Positions 1 to 55,338 of a DNA stretch of 64,000 nt are shown here, piece after piece. The stretch is from NCBI GenBank assembly GCA_041656935.1, contig JBBACQ010000003.1, positions 27,358 to 91,357 of the forward strand. Direction: 5' to 3'. Every line of letters starts with the position of its first letter. Within the stretch, counting starts at the first letter, position 1. The notes under the pieces were generated by a model. The model had not been told where the DNA came from. It did no database searches and saw only the letters and a list, made by a program, of their open reading frames with translations. Made by a program: the position numbers and the translations under genes. This DNA comes from Patescibacteria group bacterium. GTDB taxonomy: Bacteria; Patescibacteriota; Patescibacteriia; Patescibacteriales; UBA12465.

Positions 1-3000
1 AGTTACACTCGCGCATTTCTAAGCAAATTTTTTCGTTAGTTTCTTGATCAATTGTGTAAGAATAACAAGCTAACCATTTTCCACAAACTCTATCCGGATC
101 AACCTTTAACAAGGTATTAGCGTCACAACTGGCCCCCGAACAAGTAGAATAATTTGTATAATTATAAGCATTAAAATTTAAAGGATTAATAATACCATTA
201 TTATAAGACCGCTCATTAAATAAAACACAACCTTTACTAAAATCGGCTCCTGAGCAAGAATCGGAATTTAAATTTTGTTTTAATTGATAATCAATCACTG
301 CTTCTCTAAGCTCAATTTGAGAATCAGGCTCTCCTATAAGAAATGTCCCGGAAGGTCTTTCATAAATAACCCAACAAGGATTATTATCCCCTGAATAAAA
401 AGACTTTTTATTATACCCACTTACATTTTTGCTAACCTTAACAAAATAACTAGAAGGAGCAACCGGAGATATAAGAGGATCTAAAAAAGTATTAGAAGAA
501 TCCAATTCATATATAGGATTAACACAAAATATTGTGGCATCTTGCTCTCCTTTAGTTTCCAAAATGTAAAGCTTATTATTTTTTATGTTTAAATTTTGTT
601 GATATTTAATATTTTGCGAACAAACAATTTCGTCATCATCAAGAGTGCAAGCACCGGTAATTTCTTCCCAAAAATCAAATATTTGACCATCACCATCTAA
701 ATCAAGGAAACTAGAATTTATAATAATATTAGAACCAAAAGAACTAACCGGATCAATATATTCTGTACAACCAGCTTGTTTTATCGGACAAAGTCCAGCC
801 CACTTAACTTTATTATCATCCTCAGTCGGTTGATCAATCGCCGAGCCTCCCCAACCAATTGTTTTTAAATTATCAACAGCACATAAATGATCAATATTAT
901 CTAAAGAGCAAGAAACATTAACAGCGCAATCACTATCAGTTACACATAAAATTCCTGTTCCTCCGCACCGATTAACCTTTTTCTTATACCAATTTAAAGC
1001 AGTTATTTCAGTTGTTCCCGAAACAATTTTTCCCGAACGCCATTGACAGACATTATCTCCGGGATCCTTAAAATAAATGGTGCCAGACTGACTACTGGAA
1101 TTCCAAGCGTCACAACCAAGCTCATTATTGGTACAGAGAAATCCATTAGTAGTAGTCGCCTTATTAGGATCATATTTCAAATAAGTATCTTGATAAACAT
1201 TTTCCACCAACATTTTTCCGAAAAGACTACAGCCCATATTAGCCGAGGAACAAGCCTTGCCAGTATCATAGACTACCGCCTGAAAAGAATAATTAGTCGG
1301 ATTATAAGAATTATAATTATTAGTTTTGACCATCATTTCACAACCGACGGCACTATCATCACAAATCTTAGAAAAATTAATTAAACTATGATTATTATTA
1401 AGACGATCACTATAATTTTGACAACCTAAATTGTAATTTTCAGTTTGTTGATTACCTAAAACATCAAATTTACAAATAGCGGGAACAGCCCAAGAATCCT
1501 TTATTAAATAATATCTATTACTAATTTCTAATAAAACAATATTAGCGATATAGACATTTCCTGAAGAATCAGAAATTTTGAAAACCAAATCTTCACCACT
1601 AATCACAGAATGATCTAAGTTTTCTAAATTAACCTGATAAAGGGTCCAGTCATCACTATCAGAAATTTGTACCCCCTGAACTTCTTGATCATCTTTATTC
1701 ACCGAACCAAACAAACTTTCCGCTGTTCCATCAGTAAAGTATATTGATAAATTTTCAGCTTGATTGCTTTTGGCTAAAAATTTAATTATATAGGAAGACC
1801 CCGTTTTAGCTAAATTACCAATATTATTTTGCATTTCATCTGTTAACAGAATTGAACTTCCCCCTTGACCTAAGGCTTCGGTGGTGCTAACCGAAACGTC
1901 TCCTGCCCAATCTTCTAAGCCATAATTAAAATCAAAGGAATCAACAATTCTAACACTATTACCGGAATTACCATTATACTCTCGACAACCATTAACACTG
2001 GCTGAGCAACCCTGTCCTTCCCCAGGGATAGATTTATACAAACAAGCTTTTTGAGTATTATCCCACCAACCACCATTTAGACAATGGTAACAAACATTTA
2101 AACCACTATCCCAAGAAGCTACTAACGGTTGTCCAGCTTGATTTAAGCTCAAACAACCAGAAGAGTCAGTATAGGCATAGTTAATATTCTTTTCAGTCAT
2201 CCGATAGGTTTTACAATTTGCTGAGCAAGAAATAGATTTGGAATAAAGAATATAGAAAATCTGACCAGCTTGATTATAGAACTCTCGACAATCAGAATTA
2301 TATCCAGGATCAGAAACTGGTTTATTATAAATATTTTGATCGCAGACAGTGCTTCCATTAATTTCATGTTGCCAAATATTAGCCGAAGAAGAAGTTAAAC
2401 TTCCAACGGTTAATTTAATATTTTTATTGGAACTACTAATGGCCTCTAAGCTATAAGATTTTAATTGATAACCACCACCACTAACACCTTCCCAAGAATA
2501 AAAATTTTCGCAAGTTCCTCCATCGGGCTTAATACAATGTTTTAAACTAGTGTAATATTCTTTACCCTCTCCACCAACAGCTAATTCATCTAAATTAGTA
2601 AATTCGGTACAACCAGATTGGCTAGCATTACAAGAAGTAGCCGAAGAAGGAATTAATTTTTCAATCGCTCTATTTTCAAATAAAGTATTTTTTTGTACAT
2701 AAACATCATAACCGACACATTGATTCGGACAATAATTCTTATCTAAAACCTTACCAGTAATTTTTAAATTATAAATCGAAGTAAAAGTTTCACAACCGAC
2801 TTCATCGTTATTACATAAACGAGCATATTTATAACACTCGCTCGGAGCATTAGTTTTTAACCTAAAATCAGTTGGAGAAACATAACAGATATTTTTTAAA
2901 TACTCCGGAATAATTTTTTCATAAATTAAACCATTGCCACGATACTCCGAATAGAAAGTCCCAACAGCTCCTTTTTCTAATTTTATATCATCGATATAAC

Positions 3001-5332
3001 AACTATTTCCATTAGGATTAATAGTAAAATTAACTTTATTAGAACCATAAATATCGGGGAAAGTATAGGTTAAGCTCTGATATTCAAAACCACCTGAATT
3101 ACTAATATTTTTAGGCAAGCTACCTCCTAAAGAGAAACTAGAAGTAGCCGTTCCCGAACAATAAGAATAAAAAGATAAGGTATAAGTTTCCCCACCGATA
3201 TTATAACTACTACTAGCAACTGTTATGTCCTCGGATAAAGAAGAAGAACTAGGAAGATATAAGGAAAGTTGACCAGTATAAAAATTAGTACTAGTAGAAT
3301 AAGAATCCCAACCACCAATACTCAAATCATCTTCAAAACTTCCATTTAATAAAAAATTATGGCCAACGCCTACGGCTGTTCTAATAAACTCTTGGCAACC
3401 CTCATCGTTAGCTGAACAAGATTGAATTTTATTGTTAAAATAATAAGAGCTGGAAATATCCCAAGTTACTTTTTTATTAAAAGAGTCATAGGTCAAGGGA
3501 ACAACATATTTTTTACAACCAACATTTTCCGCATCACAGCCTTCATAGTCAAGAGTGTTCTTTAATAAAGCTAATTTCTTACCGTTAGAAACACTAGTAA
3601 AATAATCGCAGGTATTATAAACTGGATCACAAGAATCTTCTGAAAAGTTCCAAATTCTTTTCTCTTCTAAACAATAACCATAATATTCACAGGTACCATC
3701 CGACCTCTCTTTAATACAGGATTGTTCGTCAGCACAATAATTATCAGACCGAGAAACAATAATCGGTTTAACACCAGTTTGTTGATAAATATCTTCGGCG
3801 ACATTAACCAATTGTTGACTAGCAATATGACCGCCGTATCCTTGACGTTTGCAATAATTTAAAGGCGCCTTTAGAACCCAATTAGGATCAATTAATCCTC
3901 GGCACCATAATGAATTTGAATCTTCCCCACCATAACCAGATTTAATAAAACCATCACTATAAGTTTCATAATCATCCTCGCTAGAAAAACAAGAAACAAA
4001 ATCCATTAAAGTATAGCGATAACCTTTATCAGTTGTTTTTTCTTCAGCTAAATTAAGAGCCTCTTCCCAACCCAAAGGGATAATACGAAACTTTCGTAAA
4101 ATAATTAAGGAACGATGATTAAACCCAGTGGTGTAATCAGAATATCTTTCTAAAGTCCAATCAGGATTTAAATAACCATTATCAATGGCCTCAATTACAG
4201 TATTTTTATTCTCAACTGCCTGTCGGAATTGATTATCAATAACACAATTATTCGGTCTCGGATTTTTAGGATCTAAACAAACAATTAAATCCGATAAAAT
4301 ATTATAATCAGCTCGAACGTTGAAGCGAGGTTTAATAACTTTTTTTAATGATTCTATTACATATTTCTGACCAGAGAATGAAGAGGGGTCAGAATCCGAA
4401 GAAGTATAATCTGGACCACCGTTGTCTGAAGAAGCATCCGGATCTTTTTTACCTAAATTTTTAACTATATTATTAAAAGCAGTTATTGCTAATTGATTTA
4501 AAAAAATATTAGAAGCGTCCACCAAAGCATTGCCAGTAAACTTTCCTAAATTTTGTACCAAGGCTGAGTCAGCTTGTTGTAATTCTCTCTCGGCCTGTCC
4601 GGGAGGAGTATCAGTTGTTCCACCAATATTTCTCAAATCTAACCAACCATTATTTATTTTTACCTGTTCTTCAATTTTTTCCTGTTCTTCATCCCCAATC
4701 TCGGCTGACCGACCAAAAAGTTCTAGAGCAATGGTAACATCATTGCCAGTTGGCTCAAACATATTGGCTACCTTGCTTAAATAGTCTGGACCGCTCATGC
4801 TAGCCCATTTTTCATATTCGTTCACCCAACTAGATTTTAATTCTTGCCAACCACACCTAGGAGCATAAAATTCTGGCTGGGAAAGAGCCACCAAACCTAA
4901 ACCCATTTTTACTTGAGTATCAAAACTAGGTTGACATAAATCAAATTGCCAATCTTTACTTAAGGTATCAATAAACTTACCAATTGCCGCATCTCTAGTT
5001 TTACTACCCAAATCGGTTAAATATTCTGTAGTAAATAATGGTTTTTGCCCCGCTTCACCACTACCAATCCAAGTAGCAACATCGAAAGCTAGAGTATTTA
5101 AGACCGATTGCAGAGTAGATTGAAAAGCCAAAGACCCAGCTTTTTTTAATTGGTCGGCCAAATCATCTTTGATATAATCAACAACTCCTCTAATAACACC
5201 AGTTGGTCCACCAATAACATCCGGGCCAGCCTGAACTTTGAAAGGATAAGATAGGGTTCCAAAAATAAAAGAGAAAATTAAAAAAAGAATTAAAATTTTC
5301 CCTTTATAAAAATTGAATTTAGGCTTATTCAT
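1..5332 (-). CDS. Giant secreted/cell-surface cysteine-rich protein, N-terminal >1777 aa; the gene continues beyond the window start
   Basis: Open minus-strand frame from ATG at 5332-5330 to position 1. I spot-translated three places: MNKPKFNFYKGKILILFLIFSFIFG at the start, SLEAISSSNKNIKLTVG near 2400, and CYSYTIDQETNEKICLEMRECN at 1-61. It has a hydrophobic N-terminal signal/anchor, is very Cys-rich, and contains NGSFEDD..GGW jelly-roll/CBM-like stretches. It is absent from the ORF track because there is no stop inside the window. Confidence 0.8.
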   Translation of the reverse strand, partial: MNKPKFNFYKGKILILFLIFSFIFGTLSYPFKVQAGPDVIGGPTGVIRGVVDYIKDDLADQLKKAGSLAFQSTLQSVLNTLAFDVATWIGSGEAGQKPLFTTEYLTDLGSKTRDAAIGKFIDTLSKDWQFDLCQPSFDTQVKMGLGLVALSQPEFYAPRCGWQELKSSWVNEYEKWASMSGPDYLSKVANMFEPTGNDVTIALELFGRSAEIGDEEQEKIEEQVKINNGWLDLRNIGGTTDTPPGQAERELQQADSALVQNLGKFTGNALVDASNIFLNQLAITAFNNIVKNLGKKDPDASSDNGGPDYTSSDSDPSSFSGQKYVIESLKKVIKPRFNVRADYNILSDLIVCLDPKNPRPNNCVIDNQFRQAVENKNTVIEAIDNGYLNPDWTLERYSDYTTGFNHRSLIILRKFRIIPLGWEEALNLAEEKTTDKGYRYTLMDFVSCFSSEDDYETYSDGFIKSGYGGEDSNSLWCRGLIDPNWVLKAPLNYCKRQGYGGHIASQQLVNVAEDIYQQTGVKPIIVSRSDNYCADEQSCIKERSDGTCEYYGYCLEEKRIWNFSEDSCDPVYNTCDYFTSVSNGKKLALLKNTLDYEGCDAENVGCKKYVVPLTYDSFNKKVTWDISSSYYFNNKIQSCSANDEGCQEFIRTAVGVGHNFLLNGSFEDDLSIGGWDSYSTSTNFYTGQLSLYLPSSSSLSEDITVASSSYNIGGETYTLSFYSYCSGTATSSFSLGGSLPKNISNSGGFEYQSLTYTFPDIYGSNKVNFTINPNGNSCYIDDIKLEKGAVGTFYSEYRGNGLIYEKIIPEYLKNICYVSPTDFRLKTNAPSECYKYARLCNNDEVGCETFTSIYNLKITGKVLDKNYCPNQCVGYDVYVQKNTLFENRAIEKLIPSSATSCNASQSGCTEFTNLDELAVGGEGKEYYTSLKHCIKPDGGTCENFYSWEGVSGGGYQLKSYSLEAISSSNKNIKLTVGSLTSSSANIWQHEINGSTVCDQNIYNKPVSDPGYNSDCREFYNQAGQIFYILYSKSISCSANCKTYRMTEKNINYAYTDSSGCLSLNQAGQPLVASWDSGLNVCYHCLNGGWWDNTQKACLYKSIPGEGQGCSASVNGCREYNGNSGNSVRIVDSFDFNYGLEDWAGDVSVSTTEALGQGGSSILLTDEMQNNIGNLAKTGSSYIIKFLAKSNQAENLSIYFTDGTAESLFGSVNKDDQEVQGVQISDSDDWTLYQVNLENLDHSVISGEDLVFKISDSSGNVYIANIVLLEISNRYYLIKDSWAVPAICKFDVLGNQQTENYNLGCQNYSDRLNNNHSLINFSKICDDSAVGCEMMVKTNNYNSYNPTNYSFQAVVYDTGKACSSANMGCSLFGKMLVENVYQDTYLKYDPNKATTTNGFLCTNNELGCDAWNSSSQSGTIYFKDPGDNVCQWRSGKIVSGTTEITALNWYKKKVNRCGGTGILCVTDSDCAVNVSCSLDNIDHLCAVDNLKTIGWGGSAIDQPTEDDNKVKWAGLCPIKQAGCTEYIDPVSSFGSNIIINSSFLDLDGDGQIFDFWEEITGACTLDDDEIVCSQNIKYQQNLNIKNNKLYILETKGEQDATIFCVNPIYELDSSNTFLDPLISPVAPSSYFVKVSKNVSGYNKKSFYSGDNNPCWVIYERPSGTFLIGEPDSQIELREAVIDYQLKQNLNSDSCSGADFSKGCVLFNERSYNNGIINPLNFNAYNYTNYSTCSGASCDANTLLKVDPDRVCGKWLACYSYTIDQETNEKICLEMRECN

Positions 5333-5361
5333 ATTTTATTATTTAATTTATTTGATAATTT

Positions 5362-6048
5362 TTAAAAACCCTCTAACGTTTCCTGATAAATTTTCATTAA
5401 ATCATCATCGCTCAATTGATCTAAATCATTTTGTGATAAACCGCCCTGCAATAACATTTCTCTAAGCATTTCTGGATTAATTTTATCGGCCTGAAGATCT
5501 TCTGAAAGATCAGTCTGATTTATTTGAGTTGAAGTGGTTCCTATTTCTGCTAATAAATTATATAAATCATCAGAACTTCCCGAAGAAACATTTTGCGAAT
5601 CTCCTTGATATAGGGAATCGGAACAATTTTGCCCCTCGGGACAAAGTGGATTAGTTCTATAAGTAAAAATTTCTTCGTAATCAGTTAGATCATCACCATC
5701 AGTATCTTCTAAATAAGGCGAGGTTCCATAAATAAATAATTCATCCCAATCTGAAATTCCATCACTATCAGTATCAACTAATTTTAATTCTAAATTACTC
5801 GAATTTAGATTTTCGTCTTTGTAACAACTCCCGTCGGTACAAATTTGCTGTTGGCTATTCCCGGCCAGAAGTCCCTTACTATAATCAAAAGGATTAGCCA
5901 AATTATGTTTAAAATTAAAAACCCAAATGATAACAACAAAAACACTAAAAAAAGACAAAATAATTACAGCCGTTTTTTGATTTTTTTCCATTTTTTTAGA
6001 GATACGGGATTTTCCAGAATCCTCATCTCGCCAACGGTTTTCTTCCAT
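5362..6048 (-). CDS. Membrane-anchored protein with Asp-rich thrombospondin-type-3-like (Ca-binding type) repeats
   Basis: TM helix AVIILSFFSVFVVIIWVF. Repeats DTDSDGISDWDE and DTDGDDLTDYEE. Lies directly upstream of the giant protein gene on the same strand. Confidence 0.6.
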   Translation of the reverse strand: MEENRWRDEDSGKSRISKKMEKNQKTAVIILSFFSVFVVIIWVFNFKHNLANPFDYSKGLLAGNSQQQICTDGSCYKDENLNSSNLELKLVDTDSDGISDWDELFIYGTSPYLEDTDGDDLTDYEEIFTYRTNPLCPEGQNCSDSLYQGDSQNVSSGSSDDLYNLLAEIGTTSTQINQTDLSEDLQADKINPEMLREMLLQGGLSQNDLDQLSDDDLMKIYQETLEGF

Positions 6049-38543: not shown

Positions 38544-39052
38544 CTAATTTGCTTTATAATCTTTTCTGAATAAAGCCATGGTTAAAAAATTATAAAACTT
38601 ATTATTATAAACCTCATCTATCATTTTACCTTCAATTTTAAATCCTAACTTCTTGTATAGCTTTACTGCTATTTTGTTATCTTCAATTACCCCTAAATTA
38701 ATTTTATGAAGTCTTAATTTTTTGAATCCATATTCTATTATCCATTCCATTGCCTGTTTACCAATTCCTTTTCCTCTGTAACGGTCTTCTCCAATCATAA
38801 TAAACAGATCAGCCTTTCTATTCTGTTTAGAAATATTTGATAAGCCGACCACCCCACGGGCTTGTTATCAAAAAAAATAGTGAAGAATTTTTTATTTTTA
38901 TCTTTTTGATAATTTTTAAACCATTTTTCCTGCTCCTTTAAGGTTGTTTTTTCTCCCAATTTATCACCTATATATCTATTTACTTTGGGGTTGTTTAACC
39001 ATCTTAATCTATATGGTATATCTATTTTTTTGTGAATTCTAATTTTTATCAT
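38544..39052 (-). pseudogene. GNAT N-acetyltransferase split by a 1-nt frameshift
   Basis: Two overlapping ORFs (38795-39052 and 38544-38852). Restoring one G in the run GTGGGGTGG (about 38851-38859) reads ...FDNKPVGVVGLSNISKQNRKADLFIMIGE...RGKGIGK..., a continuous GNAT. Confidence 0.75.
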
Positions 39053-39158
39053 ATTTATATTATACCATAAGTTTATCTATGTCCCAAAAGGGATTAAGTC
39101 TAAAATATACAAAAAAAAGCGGATACAAAGTGTCCACTTTCCAAGGTACATATCAATT

Positions 39159-39294
39159 GCTCGGGGGCAGGGATTCGGCCACACGTCGCTAAGTCTCGCT
39201 TGTCTCACTTCGTTCGACCGCGCTCACTAAGCGCTCTGGCCTGGCCTCGCGGTGTTCGCTACGCTCACACATCGCTCCGGCTTTCTCATCCCTG
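39159..39294 (-). repeat. tRNA-linked G+C-rich structured module, Gln copy, ending in a 19-nt copy of the tRNA-Gln 3' end
   Basis: Minus-strand reading: CAGGGAT-GA-GAAAGCCGGAGCGATGTGTGA-GCGTAGC-GAACACCGCGAGGC-...CTTAGTGAGCG...ACTTAG...GTGGC-CGAATCCCTGCCCCCGAGC. The last 19 nt (39177-39159) are identical to native tRNA positions C56-C74 (39388-39370). Followed by minus-specific terminator GUGGA/UCCGC+U8 (39137-39111). Confidence 0.6.
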
Positions 39295-39370
39295 ACGCGA
39301 AGCACTCAAGTGCTTCGATCCCCCTCACTCATTCAAAAAATCCAGCTTAAGCTGGATTTTTTTTCATTCG

Positions 39371-39441
39371 CTCGGGGGCAGGGATTCGAACCCCGATAGC
39401 CAGGACCAAAACCTGGAGTCCTACCATTAGACGACCCCCGA
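39371..39441 (-). tRNA. tRNA-Gln (anticodon UUG)
   Basis: Hand-folded cloverleaf: acceptor TCGGGGG/CCCCCGA, D arm GTCT/GGAC, anticodon stem CCAGG/CCTGG with loop TTTTGGT, T arm CGGGG-TTCGAAT-CCCTG. No encoded CCA. Terminator TCCAGC-TTAA-GCTGGA at 39335-39364. Confidence 0.9.
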
Positions 39442-39497
39442 AAAAAATATTTTATCTAAACTATCTTAATAAAAGAAACAAAATAAGTCAAACCAAG

Positions 39498-44801: not shown

Positions 44802-46532
44802 TCAATTTTCTAAAATGACATCTTCGCCTTCTTTTATTTCTTGCTCTTCCTTTTTTTTATTGTCTCTATCTTCCTTTTTATTATAAAAACTAACTGGTTT
44901 AACCATTTTTAATTCTTCTAAACTCAAGCTCTTTTGATTTTTCTCTACTTTGTCCTCAACTGGCTTATAATTATTTTTTTCTAAACCATTTTTAACCGCA
45001 AAATTATTATTATTTTTAGGAAAATCTTTTTTTATACTTTTAACCGGAGGATTACTCTTAACCGCCGGACGATTAATCAAACATTCTCTACAATAAACTG
45101 GTCTAACCCCATCTGGTTCAAAGGGCAGGCTAACCTCAACTCCGCAAGAGGAACATTTACTCTGAAACCCCTTATTAGAAAAATCCTTTTTATCTTTCTT
45201 ATAATCTTCTTTTTTATTATCTGGAGCTCCTTTATCTTTTTTTTCTTCTGAATAATCTTGATGCCAGCGCATAATTTTTTCTTCTACCAACTCTCTCTCA
45301 CTAGCATATTTCTGTCTAGAATAAGAAATAACCTTTTCAACGTTATCGGTTTTTTCTTCAGTTAATAATGGTGGCAGACCACGAGCTGAAAAAGGATCCG
45401 AAGAAATTCCATCAATCATTAATTTTAAATACATTTCATATTTAGGTAAATTAACAATATCTTCCTCGGTAAAAACAGGAGTAAATTCTTTAACTAATTC
45501 TTCCGCATCAGCTGCTCCAACACGAAAAACAATAATCGTTCCAACGTTTCCAAAAACTGCTGGCTTAACTCGCTCATCTAACTGTTCAATGTATTGATGA
45601 GCCATAACTAGATTTAAACGATATTTTCTGGCCTCTGATAAAATATTAGCGAAACTTTCGGTAGAGAAGTTCTGAAATTCGTCAATGTATAAATAAAAAT
45701 CTTTTCGATCTTCTTCGTTAATATTAACCCGGCTCATAGCGGCTAATTGAATTTTAGTAATCATCATAGCACCCAATAGAGCCGAATTGTCTTCACCAAT
45801 TCTTCCCTTACTTAAATTCATGATAAGAATTTTACCTTCATCCATTATTTTTCTCATATCAATTGAAGATTTAACCTGACCAACAATATTTCTCATAAAA
45901 GAACTAGATAAAAATTGACCAACCTTATTTTGGATCGGAGAAACTGCCTCGGAAGCAAATTTGTCCGCATAAGAAGCAAACTCTTTCTCCCAAAAGGATT
46001 TAACCACTGGATCTTTAATGTTGGCGACCACCTTTTTACGATATTCCTTATCAGACAACATTCTAACTACTCCTAAAAGAGTAGACCCGGGGAAATCTAA
46101 AATAGCTAAAATGGAATTTCTCAAAATATATTCTAAACGAGGGCCCCAAGAATCAGCCCATAATTTTTGAAAGACGCCAATCAAACCCGAGGCAACTAAA
46201 TGTCTAAGGTGAGGTTCAACCTGTTCTACTAAATTAAAAGCAATTGGGTAATCAATATCTGAGGGGTTAAAATAAACGACGTCATTTATTCTATTATTAG
46301 GAATATATTGAATAATTTTTTCAGCTAAATCTCCGTGCGGATCAACTACCGCCACTCCTTTACCAGCTCTAATATCTTCAACTATCATATTTTCTAAAAT
46401 AGTTGATTTACCCATACCAGTTTTTCCAATTAAATACATGTGCCGACGACGATCGTCAGTTTTAATACCAAAACGTCGCATTTGATTGCGAAAATTGGTT
46501 TTAGCGAAAAATATTATATCATTATCAATCAT
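44802..46532 (-). CDS. VirD4/TraG/HerA-superfamily P-loop ATPase with a C-terminal Zn-ribbon
   Basis: Walker A GKTGMGKST, Walker B YLYIDEFQNF, RKYRLNLVMAHQ. The tail has CSSCG...YCRECL after a Lys/Asp-rich linker. Confidence 0.6.
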   Translation of the reverse strand: MIDNDIIFFAKTNFRNQMRRFGIKTDDRRRHMYLIGKTGMGKSTILENMIVEDIRAGKGVAVVDPHGDLAEKIIQYIPNNRINDVVYFNPSDIDYPIAFNLVEQVEPHLRHLVASGLIGVFQKLWADSWGPRLEYILRNSILAILDFPGSTLLGVVRMLSDKEYRKKVVANIKDPVVKSFWEKEFASYADKFASEAVSPIQNKVGQFLSSSFMRNIVGQVKSSIDMRKIMDEGKILIMNLSKGRIGEDNSALLGAMMITKIQLAAMSRVNINEEDRKDFYLYIDEFQNFSTESFANILSEARKYRLNLVMAHQYIEQLDERVKPAVFGNVGTIIVFRVGAADAEELVKEFTPVFTEEDIVNLPKYEMYLKLMIDGISSDPFSARGLPPLLTEEKTDNVEKVISYSRQKYASERELVEEKIMRWHQDYSEEKKDKGAPDNKKEDYKKDKKDFSNKGFQSKCSSCGVEVSLPFEPDGVRPVYCRECLINRPAVKSNPPVKSIKKDFPKNNNNFAVKNGLEKNNYKPVEDKVEKNQKSLSLEELKMVKPVSFYNKKEDRDNKKKEEQEIKEGEDVILEN

Positions 46533-55005: not shown

Positions 55006-55052
55006 AAGTTGACTTTATATTTTTTATTAACTAAGATATTTATGTTAATTAT

Positions 55053-55126
55053 GGGCCTTTAGCTCAGTTGGCTAGAGCACCTGCTTTGCAAGCAGGGGGT
55101 CAAGGGTTCGAGTCCCTTAAGGTCCA
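55053..55126 (+). tRNA. tRNA-Ala (anticodon UGC)
   Basis: Acceptor GGGCCTT/AAGGTCC with G3:U70, anticodon loop TTTGCAA, T arm AAGGG-TTCGAGT-CCCTT. Terminator ACCAACCCAAA-CTGC-TTTGGGTTGGT+T6 at 55135-55166. Confidence 0.92.
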
Positions 55127-55180
55127 CTGAAAAAACCAACCCAAACTGCTTTGGGTTGGTTTTTTTATTATGACAAAATT

Positions 55181-55338
55181 AAGGGACTCGAAAGCCGGAG
55201 CGATGTGTGAATTGCCGAAGGCAATGAACACCGCGAGGCGGGGTCGCGAGTTCTTAGTGAGCGTAGTCGCGTTAGCGCGAAGCGCTTTTACGCGACAAAC
55301 GAACTTAGAAACTCGTGACCGAGTCCCTTAAGGTCCAC
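55181..55338 (+). repeat. tRNA-linked G+C-rich structured module, Ala copy, ending in a 19-nt copy of the tRNA-Ala 3' end
   Basis: AAGGGAC-TC-GAAAGCCGGAGCGATGTGTGA-ATTGCCGAAGGCAAT-GAACACCGCGAGGC-...CTTAGTGAGCG...ACTTAG...GTGAC-CGAGTCCCTTAAGGTCCAC. The last 19 nt (55320-55338) equal native 55109-55127. Followed by terminator AACAGAC-GAAA-GTCTGTT+T (55349-55370). Confidence 0.6.

Follow-up and report, generated by a model that had tools for sequence, protein, structure and literature searches.

Both tRNA genes in the window, by which we mean the whole 64,000-nucleotide stretch of Patescibacteria DNA analysed here, carry a structured insert at their 3′ end, and pattern scans together with a covariance model revealed about 60 distinct relatives of these inserts, mostly in Patescibacteria. 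The inserts are about 150–230 bp long and contain no ORF. They share a direct repeat, are present at some sites and absent from others, occur in tandem arrays, have a covarying and strand-specific fold, track the tRNA and have no linked gene. Our best reading, for which we judge the chances to be evenly balanced, is a family of small, protein-less, non-autonomous insertion elements that are addressed by base pairing to tRNA 3′ ends and restore the tRNA. Comparison of the sequences suggests that the element is, or recently was, mobile, and in our best reading the duplex between an internal antisense and the duplicated tRNA segment (X) forms the "address" linking each element to its tRNA.

Read in the tRNA sense, the proposed layout is tRNA positions 1–55, X1 (56–74), a spacer (as a rule with a terminator of its own), a split antisense, the sequence GAAAG, a conserved hairpin P2, a variable hairpin P3 and X2, after which the original downstream DNA of the tRNA would resume. 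The split antisense would run from a block for positions 66–74 through a hairpin, P0, to a block for positions 56–65. With a copy of the tRNA 3′ segment at either boundary and, usually, a terminator of its own, the insert leaves the tRNA gene intact. We suggest that the active form is one folded strand of tRNA sense, most likely a read-through RNA, in which the antisense would pair with one X copy and the insert would collapse into a compact branched structure whose ends meet at T-loop positions 55/56. The address helix and the conserved three-way junction would serve as a cis-acting substrate for insertion or excision, and the mobilising machinery would act in trans; candidates are some recombinase or nuclease, or host recombination or replication slippage between the repeats, aided by DNA uptake.

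If this is true, a class of structured inserts that encode no protein has so far gone unnoticed at many tRNA genes of Patescibacteria, whose genomes are very small and have little spare DNA. The resulting partial tRNA copies and pseudo-tRNAs mislead tRNA and genomic-island finders. An element that keeps the host gene intact and is tied to it by an internal antisense would stand between integrase-type islands, introns and guide-addressed transposons, and the three-way junction, with about 60 members of diverse sequence, would be a new candidate for a structured RNA.

The Gln and Ala units of the window

The first-pass annotation had described a terminator, a hairpin, the 7-mer CAGGGAT, a G+C-rich module, a 19-nt tRNA copy and a second terminator behind tRNA-Gln, and each of these was found in its place. 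The parts of this unit and of the unit behind tRNA-Ala are as follows.

39370–39441, minus strand: tRNA-Gln(UUG) gene (ARAGORN; Rfam tRNA, 58 bits)
39388–39370, minus strand: X1 of the Gln unit, the last 19 nt of tRNA-Gln (C56–C74)
39335–39364, minus strand: element-borne terminator of the Gln unit, an A-run, TCCAGC-TTAA-GCTGGA and a T-run (fold −14.9 kcal/mol, z = −5.4)
39320–39324, minus strand: second antisense block (acc5′), GGGGG, complementary to CCCCC at positions 66–70 of the acceptor 3′ strand (minimum-energy folds)
39298–39317, minus strand: hairpin P0, CGAAGCAC-TTGA-GTGCTTCG (fold −11.4 kcal/mol)
39285–39294, minus strand: first antisense block ("guide"), CAGGGAT plus GAG, complementary to tRNA positions 65–59
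39281–39178, minus strand: G+C-rich module of the Gln unit
39244–39281, minus strand: hairpin P2 of the Gln unit, right after the junction GAAAG
39177–39241, minus strand: long hairpin P3, "type A", with CUUAGUGAGCG ... GCGAGACUUAGCGAC
39159–39177, minus strand: X2 of the Gln unit, an exact 19-nt copy of tRNA C56–C74 (CGAATCCCTGCCCCCGAGC)
39111–39142, minus strand: second terminator of the Gln unit (−16.4 kcal/mol on the minus strand versus −10.4 on the plus strand)
55053–55127, plus strand: tRNA-Ala(UGC) gene (ARAGORN; Rfam)
55109–55127, plus strand: X1 of the Ala unit
55130–55166, plus strand: terminator of the Ala unit, doubling as a P0-type hairpin, with loop AACUGCUU (−22.7 kcal/mol)
55179–55190, plus strand: Ala antisense block TTAAGGGACTCG, complementary to tRNA-Ala positions 67–56
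55194–55320, plus strand: P2 (55194–55239) and P3 (55240–55320) of the Ala unit (fold −83.1 kcal/mol, z = −8.0; covariance-model match 101 bits)
55320–55338, plus strand: X2 of the Ala unit, an exact copy of tRNA-Ala C56–C74
55344–55370, plus strand: terminator after the Ala X2

The whole Ala unit thus spans 55109–55338 on the plus strand. In the Gln unit, the motif GAATGA is repeated on both sides of the first terminator and is kept in orthologous elements; the spacer motif persists in L001 and L068 (L numbers denote individual loci) despite replaced sequence in the terminator hairpin. P2 of the Gln unit is laid out as GCC / GGA loop / GCG / AU bulge / GUGU / tandem GA / GC-GUA-GC cap / ACAC-CGC / GA / GGC, and the final base pair of P3 uses C56 of X2. 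X2 is followed by the DNA that directly follows the tRNA in relatives. The second terminator is probably the original one of the tRNA, and a native-type homologue stands after the downstream copy in L064 and after the tRNA itself in the empty L073 locus. Within the window, a shared core of a 21-mer and a 14-mer occurs only at the Gln and Ala units (shuffles expect 0.00), and a covariance-model search with filters off found no third copy.

The 7-mer CAGGGAT itself (39294–39288, minus strand) is the Watson–Crick complement of ATCCCTG in the copied tRNA segment, and the native T-stem 5′ strand is CGGGG, as first described. It is indeed more than a copied half of the T arm: it is Watson–Crick where the native stem has a G-U pair, a difference seen both in the window (CGGGG to CAGGG) and in L001 (CTGGG to CTAGG), and the antisense also pairs into T-loop nucleotides 56–60. 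The Ala unit does compensate both positions at which it differs from the Gln unit (TTAAGGGACTCG opposite CGAGTCCCTTAA). The first-pass annotation had described the 7-mer as one strand of a helix closing the module; the complement is real, but it is part of a 17–19-nt split antisense to the whole duplicated segment. The helix reaches up to 10–12 bp, with a tandem G-A variant ("GAG" opposite "CGA"), and in the Gln guide positions 58–56 face a tandem G-A mismatch plus a G-C pair. Beyond this, the Gln-unit helix extends as GGGGG (39324–39320) with CCCCC of the acceptor strand, a pairing that is GGGGA/TCCCC in L064, and P0 projects from the T-stem/acceptor junction, with one antisense block on either side. 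Closure of the module by the downstream copy, as had been proposed, is a possible pairing, but it is not the sole one and may not be the main one, since the antisense usually fits X1 where the two copies differ.

A family at tRNA 3′ ends

Pattern scanning for the P2 motif found 23 genome loci and 40 metagenome loci, and part of the apparent invariance of the P2 core comes from the scans, which demanded it. Five pattern hits (L020, L040, L043, L052, and L058) were rejected as chance matches in coding or high-G+C DNA, with the rest of the module absent. A tRNA on the same strand ends 35–103 nt upstream in 49 of 65 instances. Partners in the pattern scans include tRNAs for Gln, Ala, Ser, Leu, His, Arg, Gly, and Met; the covariance model adds Asp and Pro, bringing the total to ten amino acids, and one core is associated with tRNAs of at least 19 anticodons. 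In 28 instances the repeat begins exactly at C56, and in 12 more at most 3 nt away; it reaches at least position 73 in every instance and measures 18–24 nt, longer in some lineages, with junctions at GGTT/CGAAT and GTGAC/CGAAT. The tRNA genes are intact despite the insert (ARAGORN, Rfam).

The module is also carried by a protein-gene end (L044 and L033), where about 14 nt of local sequence are repeated and an 8-nt antisense matches the local sequence. This site resembles a target-site duplication. In one genome, Arg- and Asp-addressed modules share the same lineage-specific P3 base.

Rfam searches of the window at the gathering score returned tRNAs only, and searches of both loci at E up to 10 found nothing over the module body; the sole weak, sub-threshold match was to L20_leader (16.3 bits, E = 1.3), which touches X2 and the second terminator. 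Cargo elements of other kinds, in 16 loci, matched no Rfam family. Full-text literature searches returned no description of such an element, and the group I intron reported in Patescibacteria tRNAs lies at position 35/36 and is unrelated. BLASTP and phmmer clustering within 3.5 kb of about 55 loci found no common protein family beyond local synteny, and no TnpA was seen in the locus neighbourhoods.

Integration at tRNA 3′ ends is a classic phenomenon, and it typically leaves displaced tRNA 3′ fragments as scars. The units might be such passive scars, attR-side remnants of deleted integrase-encoding elements (prophages, plasmids) whose complementarity is functionless; consistent with this, X2 is decayed in about a quarter of copies, and in L066 the same tRNA-Gln holds another integrated element with a large serine recombinase and Rep. 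We consider this explanation highly improbable and already largely refuted. The same boundaries recur in more than 60 copies spread over several phyla, together with a fold that has undergone compensatory changes; antisense and tRNA covary; and no ORF or integrase remnant lies within 3.5 kb of the loci. Neither BLAST searches of phage and plasmid collections nor scans of viral contigs gave a match, and no autonomous relative with the same ends was found in these collections.

Fold, strand and antisense

The fold consists of a closing helix and two hairpins that form a three-way junction. Cells of the alignment are paired in 87–90% of cases, compared with 36–47% when the partner is slid. Double changes occur at 23 of 43 pairs in the MAFFT alignment and at 39 of 43 in the model-fitted alignment, which leans to its own founding structure; none of 500 shuffles reached the observed values. 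RNAalifold on the raw MAFFT alignment gave P2 only, with P1 and P3 misaligned, and a manual structure was used. Double changes affect all nine pairs of the closing helix; the pair opposite position 59 is U-A in 24, C-G in 17, and A-U in 5 cases, and for position 57 the counts are 15 U-A and 13 C-G. The three basal pairs of P2 covary (GC, CG, AU / CG, UA, AU), its GGA/GA loop is retained in the diverged copies L068, L046, and L008, and the P3 base has conserved G-U wobbles. Most homologs have a hairpin at the place of P0, often with the loop CAA-CTGC-TTG. The earlier proposal of a selected helix in a single strand is supported by these relatives: across about 60 distinct homologs, whose tRNAs serve ten amino acids, the segment ahead of GAAAG varies along with the tRNA, and a failure of the 7-mer to covary with the tRNA-derived segment, which would have refuted the interpretation, was not seen.

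G-U pairs outnumber A-C pairs by 145 to 18 in the homologs, which identifies the tRNA-sense strand as the folding one, and the whole insert is predicted to self-fold within a read-through transcript. Several known structures were considered by reading and rejected. Loop sizes do not fit a K-turn; the conserved junction strands of a hammerhead or HDV-like core are absent; the boundaries lack the complementarity of an archaeal bulge-helix-bulge intron; and ARAGORN was negative for a two-piece tmRNA. A TnpB-type right-end RNA with a 3′ guide would bring neither an antisense nor a duplication, and kissing between the P0 and P3 loops was dismissed, as P0 loops vary without a matching P3 change. Nor is the upstream block a copy of the tRNA 5′ acceptor strand: pairing passes position 73, and in L007 an A rather than a G stands opposite T70.

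The first antisense block (7–12 nt) is complementary to tRNA positions 56–65, and a second, often present, covers 66–74; both change along with the tRNA, and the duplex often extends past position 74. An acceptor helix of at least 5 bp, anchored by the hairpin, forms in 65% of homologs with their own tRNA versus 6.7% with another tRNA, and about 35% of units lack the acceptor block. Two observations point to ongoing constraint: in the lineage of the window, X2 and the antisense block changed together with the acceptor pair of the tRNA, and between orthologs the module is 72–81% identical, compared with 39–62% for the flanks. Where X1 and X2 differ, the antisense fits X1 at least as well in 12 of 14 hand-tabulated cases; the X1 fit is better in 11, with two ties and one reverse case, a decayed pseudo-tRNA. 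The element may carry X1, as L068, L050, L036, and L021 suggest, although in L056 the acceptor antisense pairs with X2 only and the protein-gene site resembles a target-site duplication.

One specific version of the mobile-element reading, which we regard as quite unlikely, is that the unit is a folded single-stranded DNA recombination site similar to integron attC or the forked hairpin of CTX phage. The antisense–X duplex would rebuild the double-stranded tRNA gene from C56 on within one strand, and a host Xer-like tyrosine recombinase or HUH nuclease would exchange strands at T-loop positions 55/56. Such a site would account for an antisense that is perfectly Watson–Crick exactly at the native G-U pair and covers T-loop bases like a bottom DNA strand, for the one fixed repeat start at 55/56, for the A in the L007 acceptor block where the tRNA has G3, and for an antisense that follows X1, the copy expected in an excised circle. 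A further fit is the similarity of the GCGNAGC-type caps to stable DNA mini-hairpins. Like attC and the XerCD-used attP of CTX phage, the element keeps structure over sequence, has a single folding strand, and forms a duplex that could imitate the target. However, no attC-type boxes (R″/L″–L′/R′, with GTTRRRY at the crossover) were seen by reading, dif-like sites and a nearby integrase are missing, the ORFs scanned near both window loci are housekeeping genes with no recombinase, and none is linked to the family. Conserved G-T pairs are frequent and, like the tandem G-A motifs, speak more for RNA. Abundant G-U-type pairs and a conserved three-way junction with specific internal loops set the element apart from attC and CTX attP, and the protein-gene copy duplicates local sequence, unlike conservative recombination.

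Spread, expression and known systems

The orthologous site between ftsX and tRNA-Gln is filled in the window, L064, and L068; it is clean and empty in L073, holds only a remnant in L071, is occupied by another integrated element in L066, and in L072 carries two tandem units with different cargo in the same layout. An exact-protein look-up with the FtsX of the window gave no match, and homologs were used for this locus comparison. L012 holds filled and empty paralogs, tandem arrays occur in L059, L032, and L036, and three of five tRNAs in a short stretch of L046 carry units. Bodies at four tRNA-Ser loci from one sample group are 91–98% identical. Across species, element sub-lineages go with the type of tRNA, and the Gln unit has kept to one locus over FtsX divergence down to 69% identity; movement must therefore be rare, and a stable host function fits these two patterns equally well.

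The module may instead be a resident, host-useful small RNA gene that is read through from the tRNA promoter and is not mobile, an alternative that we consider possible though somewhat unlikely. Its closing duplex, made of the T-stem/acceptor 3′ copy and the complement, would act as a built-in external guide sequence or minihelix, and trimming by RNase P, RNase Z, and the CCA-adding enzyme would yield a stable RNA of about 150–190 nt whose conserved P2 loop (GGA/GA, tandem GA) would bind some partner. A terminator usually separates tRNA and module and no promoter-like site was found ahead of the module, so expression must rely on read-through, in the preferred reading as well as in this one; co-transcription is expected in L009, L012, and L017, where that terminator is absent. 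A small RNA would also fit the persistence of the module above its flanks over long divergence at one locus, the excess of G-U over A-C pairs, and RNA-typical motifs such as tandem G-A pairs and the UUCG cap in L023. Six of nine single-base X2 changes keep a wobble pair with the antisense, and the acceptor-type helix of L056 has diverged from the tRNA yet still has 9 bp. The fold is likewise intact beside decayed tRNAs in L057 and at the second locus of L073.

Plant mitochondrial t-elements, mascRNA, and RNase P external guides similarly place the 3′ strand of an acceptor/T-stem duplex beside a non-tRNA RNA, and by analogy the unit could in principle recruit RNase P or RNase Z. Unlike in t-elements and mascRNA, no T-loop is formed here and the duplex is continuous, often over-long, and an exact copy of the neighbouring tRNA; with T-loop nucleotides 56–60 paired and the helix often running past 74, it is a plain duplex rather than a tRNA mimic. 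About a third of units, the Ala unit of the window among them, have no acceptor block. The small-RNA explanation also leaves unexplained why the 3′ strand must copy the adjacent tRNA, and why there are tandem arrays, empty orthologous sites, the L072 cargo, and a protein-gene copy.

Within the preferred reading of base-pair-addressed insertion elements, an unlikely but more far-reaching form is a programmable insertion system, in which the 17–19-nt split antisense beside the three-way junction selects the DNA (or RNA) segment to occupy and duplicate. Insertion would be carried out by a trans-acting enzyme or by the RNA itself. A rewritable address would explain the association with at least 19 anticodons and a protein-gene end, the Arg and Asp modules, and the 8-nt local antisense, and if the address directs insertion, the element would be a compact natural device for base-pair-programmed targeting. 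Group II intron EBS–IBS pairing, the IS200/IS605 guide at the foot of its hairpin, and IS110 bridge RNA also use a short target-complementary segment that changes with the target, and the likeness extends to two blocks flanking a hairpin and an address apparently rewritten at a non-tRNA site. In contrast to these systems, the element has no reverse transcriptase, TnpA, or DEDD recombinase gene, its address is the duplicated segment, and it makes a long direct repeat, which none of them does; Rfam detected none of their RNA cores here. It further differs from IS110/IS1111 bridge or seek RNA in having no ORF and an antisense that is paired in the same molecule rather than exposed in internal loops, and from IS200/IS605 palindrome-associated elements, which make no target duplication, in its long direct repeat. 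Compared with a MITE, it has no terminal inverted repeats of its own, the only inverted repeat being the target-specific antisense, and its direct repeat is at least 18 nt rather than 2–10 bp.

Integrase-type tRNA elements and their integrase-less, cis-mobilizable derivatives resemble the units in their T-loop-to-3′-end direct repeat, restored tRNA, decaying displaced copy, tandem arrays, and presence or absence among relatives. The units described here differ in being about 200 bp long with no integrase in or near them, and in combining one core with at least 19 anticodons, ten amino acids, and a protein-gene site instead of one attachment specificity. They also have an internal antisense to the repeat, a strand-specific RNA-like fold, and a local duplication at the protein gene. 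REP/BIME, Rickettsia palindromic, and Correia elements and rRNA intervening sequences are likewise small, non-coding, G+C-rich for their genome, hairpin-forming, and sporadic, and are tolerated since the host gene is not destroyed. Against these, the present elements lack both terminal inverted repeats of their own and a short target duplication, lie strictly at tRNA 3′ ends, and carry a spare gene end together with a target-specific antisense.

Two tRNA-linked units in the window and their anatomy

The first-pass annotation had proposed an order of elements at the tRNA-Gln locus, and we found every listed part in place on the minus strand. The features of this unit, a protein-free folded insert of about 200 bases at the tRNA 3' end, and of its counterpart behind tRNA-Ala are as follows.

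39441-39370, minus: tRNA-Gln(UUG)
39364-39335, minus: terminator of the Gln unit (A-run, hairpin, T-run)
39324-39320, minus: GGGGG of the Gln unit
39317-39298, minus: hairpin of the Gln unit, CGAAGCAC-TTGA-GTGCTTCG
39294-39285, minus: CAGGGAT, then GAG (Gln unit)
39281-39178, minus: G+C-rich module of the Gln unit
39177-39159, minus: exact 19-nt copy of tRNA-Gln C56-C74
39142-39111, minus: second terminator of the Gln unit
55053-55127, plus: tRNA-Ala, followed by the homologous unit, which ends at 55338

The Gln and Ala units have a 21-mer and a 14-mer in common that are absent elsewhere in the window (shuffle expectation 0.00), and their loci are its only non-coding G+C-rich islands (the window is about 31% G+C). 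A covariance-model search with filters off detected no third copy in the window. The same promoter-like site, TTGACT-17 nt-TAAGAT, lies upstream of both tRNAs (39463-39491, minus; 55009-55037, plus), and no such site was found ahead of the Gln or Ala module.

Across the family, a unit read in the tRNA sense runs from X1 (the tRNA's own positions 56-74) through a spacer, usually an A-run/hairpin/T-run terminator, to a short antisense block for 66-74, hairpin P0, an antisense block for 56-65, the junction GAAAG, hairpins P2 and P3, X2 (the downstream copy of X1) and the native trailer. P2 comprises 3 bp, a GGA/GA internal loop, 3 bp, an AU bulge, 4 bp, tandem G-A and a variable cap, and P3 comes in two length types. 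The direct repeat starts exactly at C56 in 28 instances and at most 3 nt away in 12 more, and in every instance it reaches at least the discriminator base. Two homologs, L056 and L060, carry an extra hairpin, GCC(C/T)xCCTGCCGGTAGGCAGG, within P2 between the basal stem and the GGA loop, with the remaining fold undisturbed.

The window comes from a patescibacterium whose FtsX shares 69% identity with the Candidatus Falkowbacteria HGW-1 protein. Two adjoining ORFs, of 85 aa (38795-39052) and 102 aa (38544-38852), lie immediately past the downstream end of the Gln unit (38544-39052, minus) and match the N-terminal (profile positions 15-65) and C-terminal (63-151) parts of one GNAT/PseH-type acetyltransferase model; together they look like a frameshifted or split acetyltransferase gene. 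A 576-aa protein (44802-46532, minus) that combines a DNA-binding domain of TrwB type (type IV secretion coupling protein) with a treble-clef zinc finger has cell-division genes as neighbours: DivIC, D-Ala-D-Ala peptidase, FtsE and FtsX.

Fold, hosts and tRNA linkage of the family

Comparison of homologs indicates that the unit fold is backed by covariation and strand-specific. With a hand-drawn structure on a MAFFT alignment, 87% of cells were paired, versus 36-47% with partners slid, and both-side changes occurred in 23 of 43 pairs; none of 500 shuffles reached the observed values. An alignment of 60 distinct sequences fitted to the covariance model, and biased towards that model's own structure, gave 90% paired cells and both-side changes in 39 of 43 pairs. 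The P2 core was imposed by the search pattern and is therefore uninformative for covariation; copies found without that constraint, in L068, L046 and L008, preserve both the GGA/GA loop and, by compensatory changes, the helix. Across the family, G-U pairs number 145 versus 18 A-C pairs, so the structure is impossible on the complementary strand.

We detected the motif GGAGCGATGTGTGA...GAACACC(GC) at no fewer than 23 loci in a species-representative genome collection and at least 40 metagenome loci, both lower bounds from large-collection scans that demanded the P2 core. Five pattern matches were discarded as chance. Among the matches listed, a same-strand tRNA ends 35-103 nt upstream in 49 of 65 instances, and most of the remainder are cut by contig ends. 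The covariance model, trained on 24 non-redundant units, returned 74 matches (60 distinct), including diverged copies behind further tRNAs of the same stretches: L046 has units behind its Arg, Asp and Ala-CGC tRNAs, three of its five, and L008 behind Arg and Pro. In the family as a whole, the tRNAs represent ten amino acids, with 19 anticodons or more.

Hosts, assigned by bin with some bins possibly mis-assigned, are mostly Patescibacteria (Paceibacteria/Parcubacteria, Kaiserbacteria, Saccharibacteria). Outside that group there are two bins of Elusimicrobiaceae, a single Zixibacteria bin and some with a Gammaproteobacteria label. For one bin with the last label the assignment is doubtful because its sequence is identical to one in a Parcubacteria genome. 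No like element was found in Rfam 15 or the searchable literature, which is not proof that the unit is undescribed.

Antisense blocks and their tRNA partner

The complementarity between CAGGGAT and ATCCCTG of the copied tRNA segment, on which the first-pass annotation had built its closing helix, is real, though the 7-mer is only part of a longer block complementary to positions 56-65. Its predicted covariation with the tRNA-derived segment was confirmed, as pairs of the closing helix shift with the tRNA across homologs: in the model-fitted alignment, the position-59 pair is U-A in 24, C-G in 17 and A-U in 5 sequences, and the position-63 pair is G-C in 27, A-U in 8, G-U in 4 and U-A in 2. In agreement with the first-pass annotation, the block is a true complement rather than a copied strand of the T-stem: it is Watson-Crick against a native G-U in the window and in the homolog L001.

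Its pairing extends into T-loop bases 56-60, complete in some units (TCG opposite CGA) and in others made of G-C plus tandem G-A (GAG opposite CGA). A second block, immediately 5' of P0, carries the helix on into the acceptor strand, with at least 5 bp in 65% of units against their own tRNA versus 6.7% against another tRNA. The window Ala unit has no second block, and its first block is 12 nt instead. In the window lineage, acceptor pair A7-U66 became G7-C66, and X2 and the acceptor antisense changed in step, from GGGGA/TCCCC to GGGGG/CCCCC.

Pairing of the antisense with X1 and with X2 are both possible, and the two states are near-equivalent where X1 and X2 are identical. In 14 hand-tabulated cases where they differ, the antisense fits X1 at least as well as X2 in 12 and strictly better in 11; there are two ties, and the decayed pseudo-tRNA of L039 is the sole opposite case. 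At L068, a compensated position-59 change is present in X1 and the antisense and absent from X2. Of nine single-base changes in X2 across the family, six retain a wobble pair with the antisense. The acceptor block of L056 forms a 9-bp helix with a diverged X2, not with X1. In minimum-energy folds of full read-through transcripts, X1 is the partner of the antisense and X2 that of the tRNA body at both window loci; the insert from X1 to P3 folds on itself and exits the T-loop between positions 55 and 56.

Insertion behaviour and possible mechanism

The unit behaves as an insertion. The orthologous ftsX-tRNA-Gln site is filled in the window, L064 (FtsX 73% identical) and L068 (69%). In L073 (59%), a terminator homologous to that after X2 in L064 directly follows the tRNA, and in L071 (72%) a mere fragment resembling the antisense and junction region is left. 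In L072 (63%), the site holds two tandem units (2565-3010) that keep the layout, with X, terminator, hairpin GCCTC-GCA-GAGGC, antisense GGATTCG, cargo and X in that order, around an unrelated G+C-rich cargo some 170 nt long. These two units differ in one hairpin, by compensated changes, and their cargo matched neither the covariance model nor Rfam. The closest relative, L066 (76%), has no module at tRNA-Gln; what follows that tRNA instead (3512-5912) is another kind of integrated element, with a Rep (G2P-type) gene and a large serine recombinase, the ORF called for the latter overlapping tRNA-Gln in antisense.

Elsewhere, L012 has filled and unfilled tRNA-Gly paralogs, and there are tandem and partial second units at L059, L032 and L036 and in the tRNA-Gly lineage. 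Four tRNA-Ser loci from a single sample group have module bodies 91-98% identical to one another, against 76% for the closest match anywhere else. In L046, the units behind tRNA-Arg and tRNA-Asp are among mutual closest relatives (P2-P3 body identity 71%), share a P3 base that looks lineage-specific by eye, and have different addresses. At L044 (576-760) and L033 (1711-1900), both minus, the module sits at a protein gene 3' end (C-terminus ...EEGI) with no tRNA nearby; its repeat is about 14 nt of local sequence (TTAAGCGTTnAAA), and an 8-nt block, GCTTAAAT, is complementary to ATTTAAGC at the upstream copy. Several inferences each rest on one locus (L068, L056, L044). No protein family is common to the unit neighbourhoods.

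Among orthologs, identity is 72-81% in the module versus 39-62% in the flanks (tRNA 78-97%), and the unit is also under constraint where it sits. The strand that folds is probably read-through RNA. A resident small RNA, trimmed by tRNA-processing enzymes, is the main rival account, possible but on balance unlikely.

The observations comprise a fold that is conserved and specific to one strand, an address helix tracking the tRNA, a repeat keeping the tRNA intact, presence/absence with tandem arrays, and no linked gene. We give roughly even chances to the unit being a non-autonomous insertion element, in which the address helix and three-way junction would be the cis-acting part and mobilisation would be rare, either by a factor encoded in trans or through recombination of the repeats by the host. 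A specific sub-version of this mobile element, a folded single-stranded DNA recombination site, seems improbable, and passive integration scars are largely excluded. In working, tRNA-integrating islands come closest (repeat, gene restoration, array formation), and the unit also resembles base-pair-addressed elements (group II introns, IS200/IS605, IS110), but it fails the defining tests of each.

Other elements are stacked or nested at these loci. In L013 (2010-2410), about 330 nt of inserted sequence separates the junction from P2 in a second tandem unit; because its two ends are perfect 14-bp inverted repeats (GGGTTGGCAAGCGG ... CCGCTTGCCAACCC), we regard it as a nested MITE-like element. 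In L068 (3800-4030), the unit adjoins some 220 nt of unrelated G+C-rich sequence in which CACGTGGC recurs, and GGAGG...CCTCC-rich elements, two of which truncate a second unit, lie downstream of units at the Paceibacteria loci L009, L017, L032 and L059; neither kind matched an Rfam family. Decayed tRNA-Gln pseudogenes with a D-loop insertion lie upstream of intact tRNA-Gln in L039 (1020-1720) and L071 (2460-2560). In L039, the last 18 nt of the intact tRNA-Gln recur 23 nt beyond its end, an arrangement that resembles a minimal footprint. In L061 (340-520) and L015 (minus, just past the unit), X2 is itself split by additional small G+C-rich inserts, with one more partial tRNA 3' copy after each; these loci are stacks of several element kinds.
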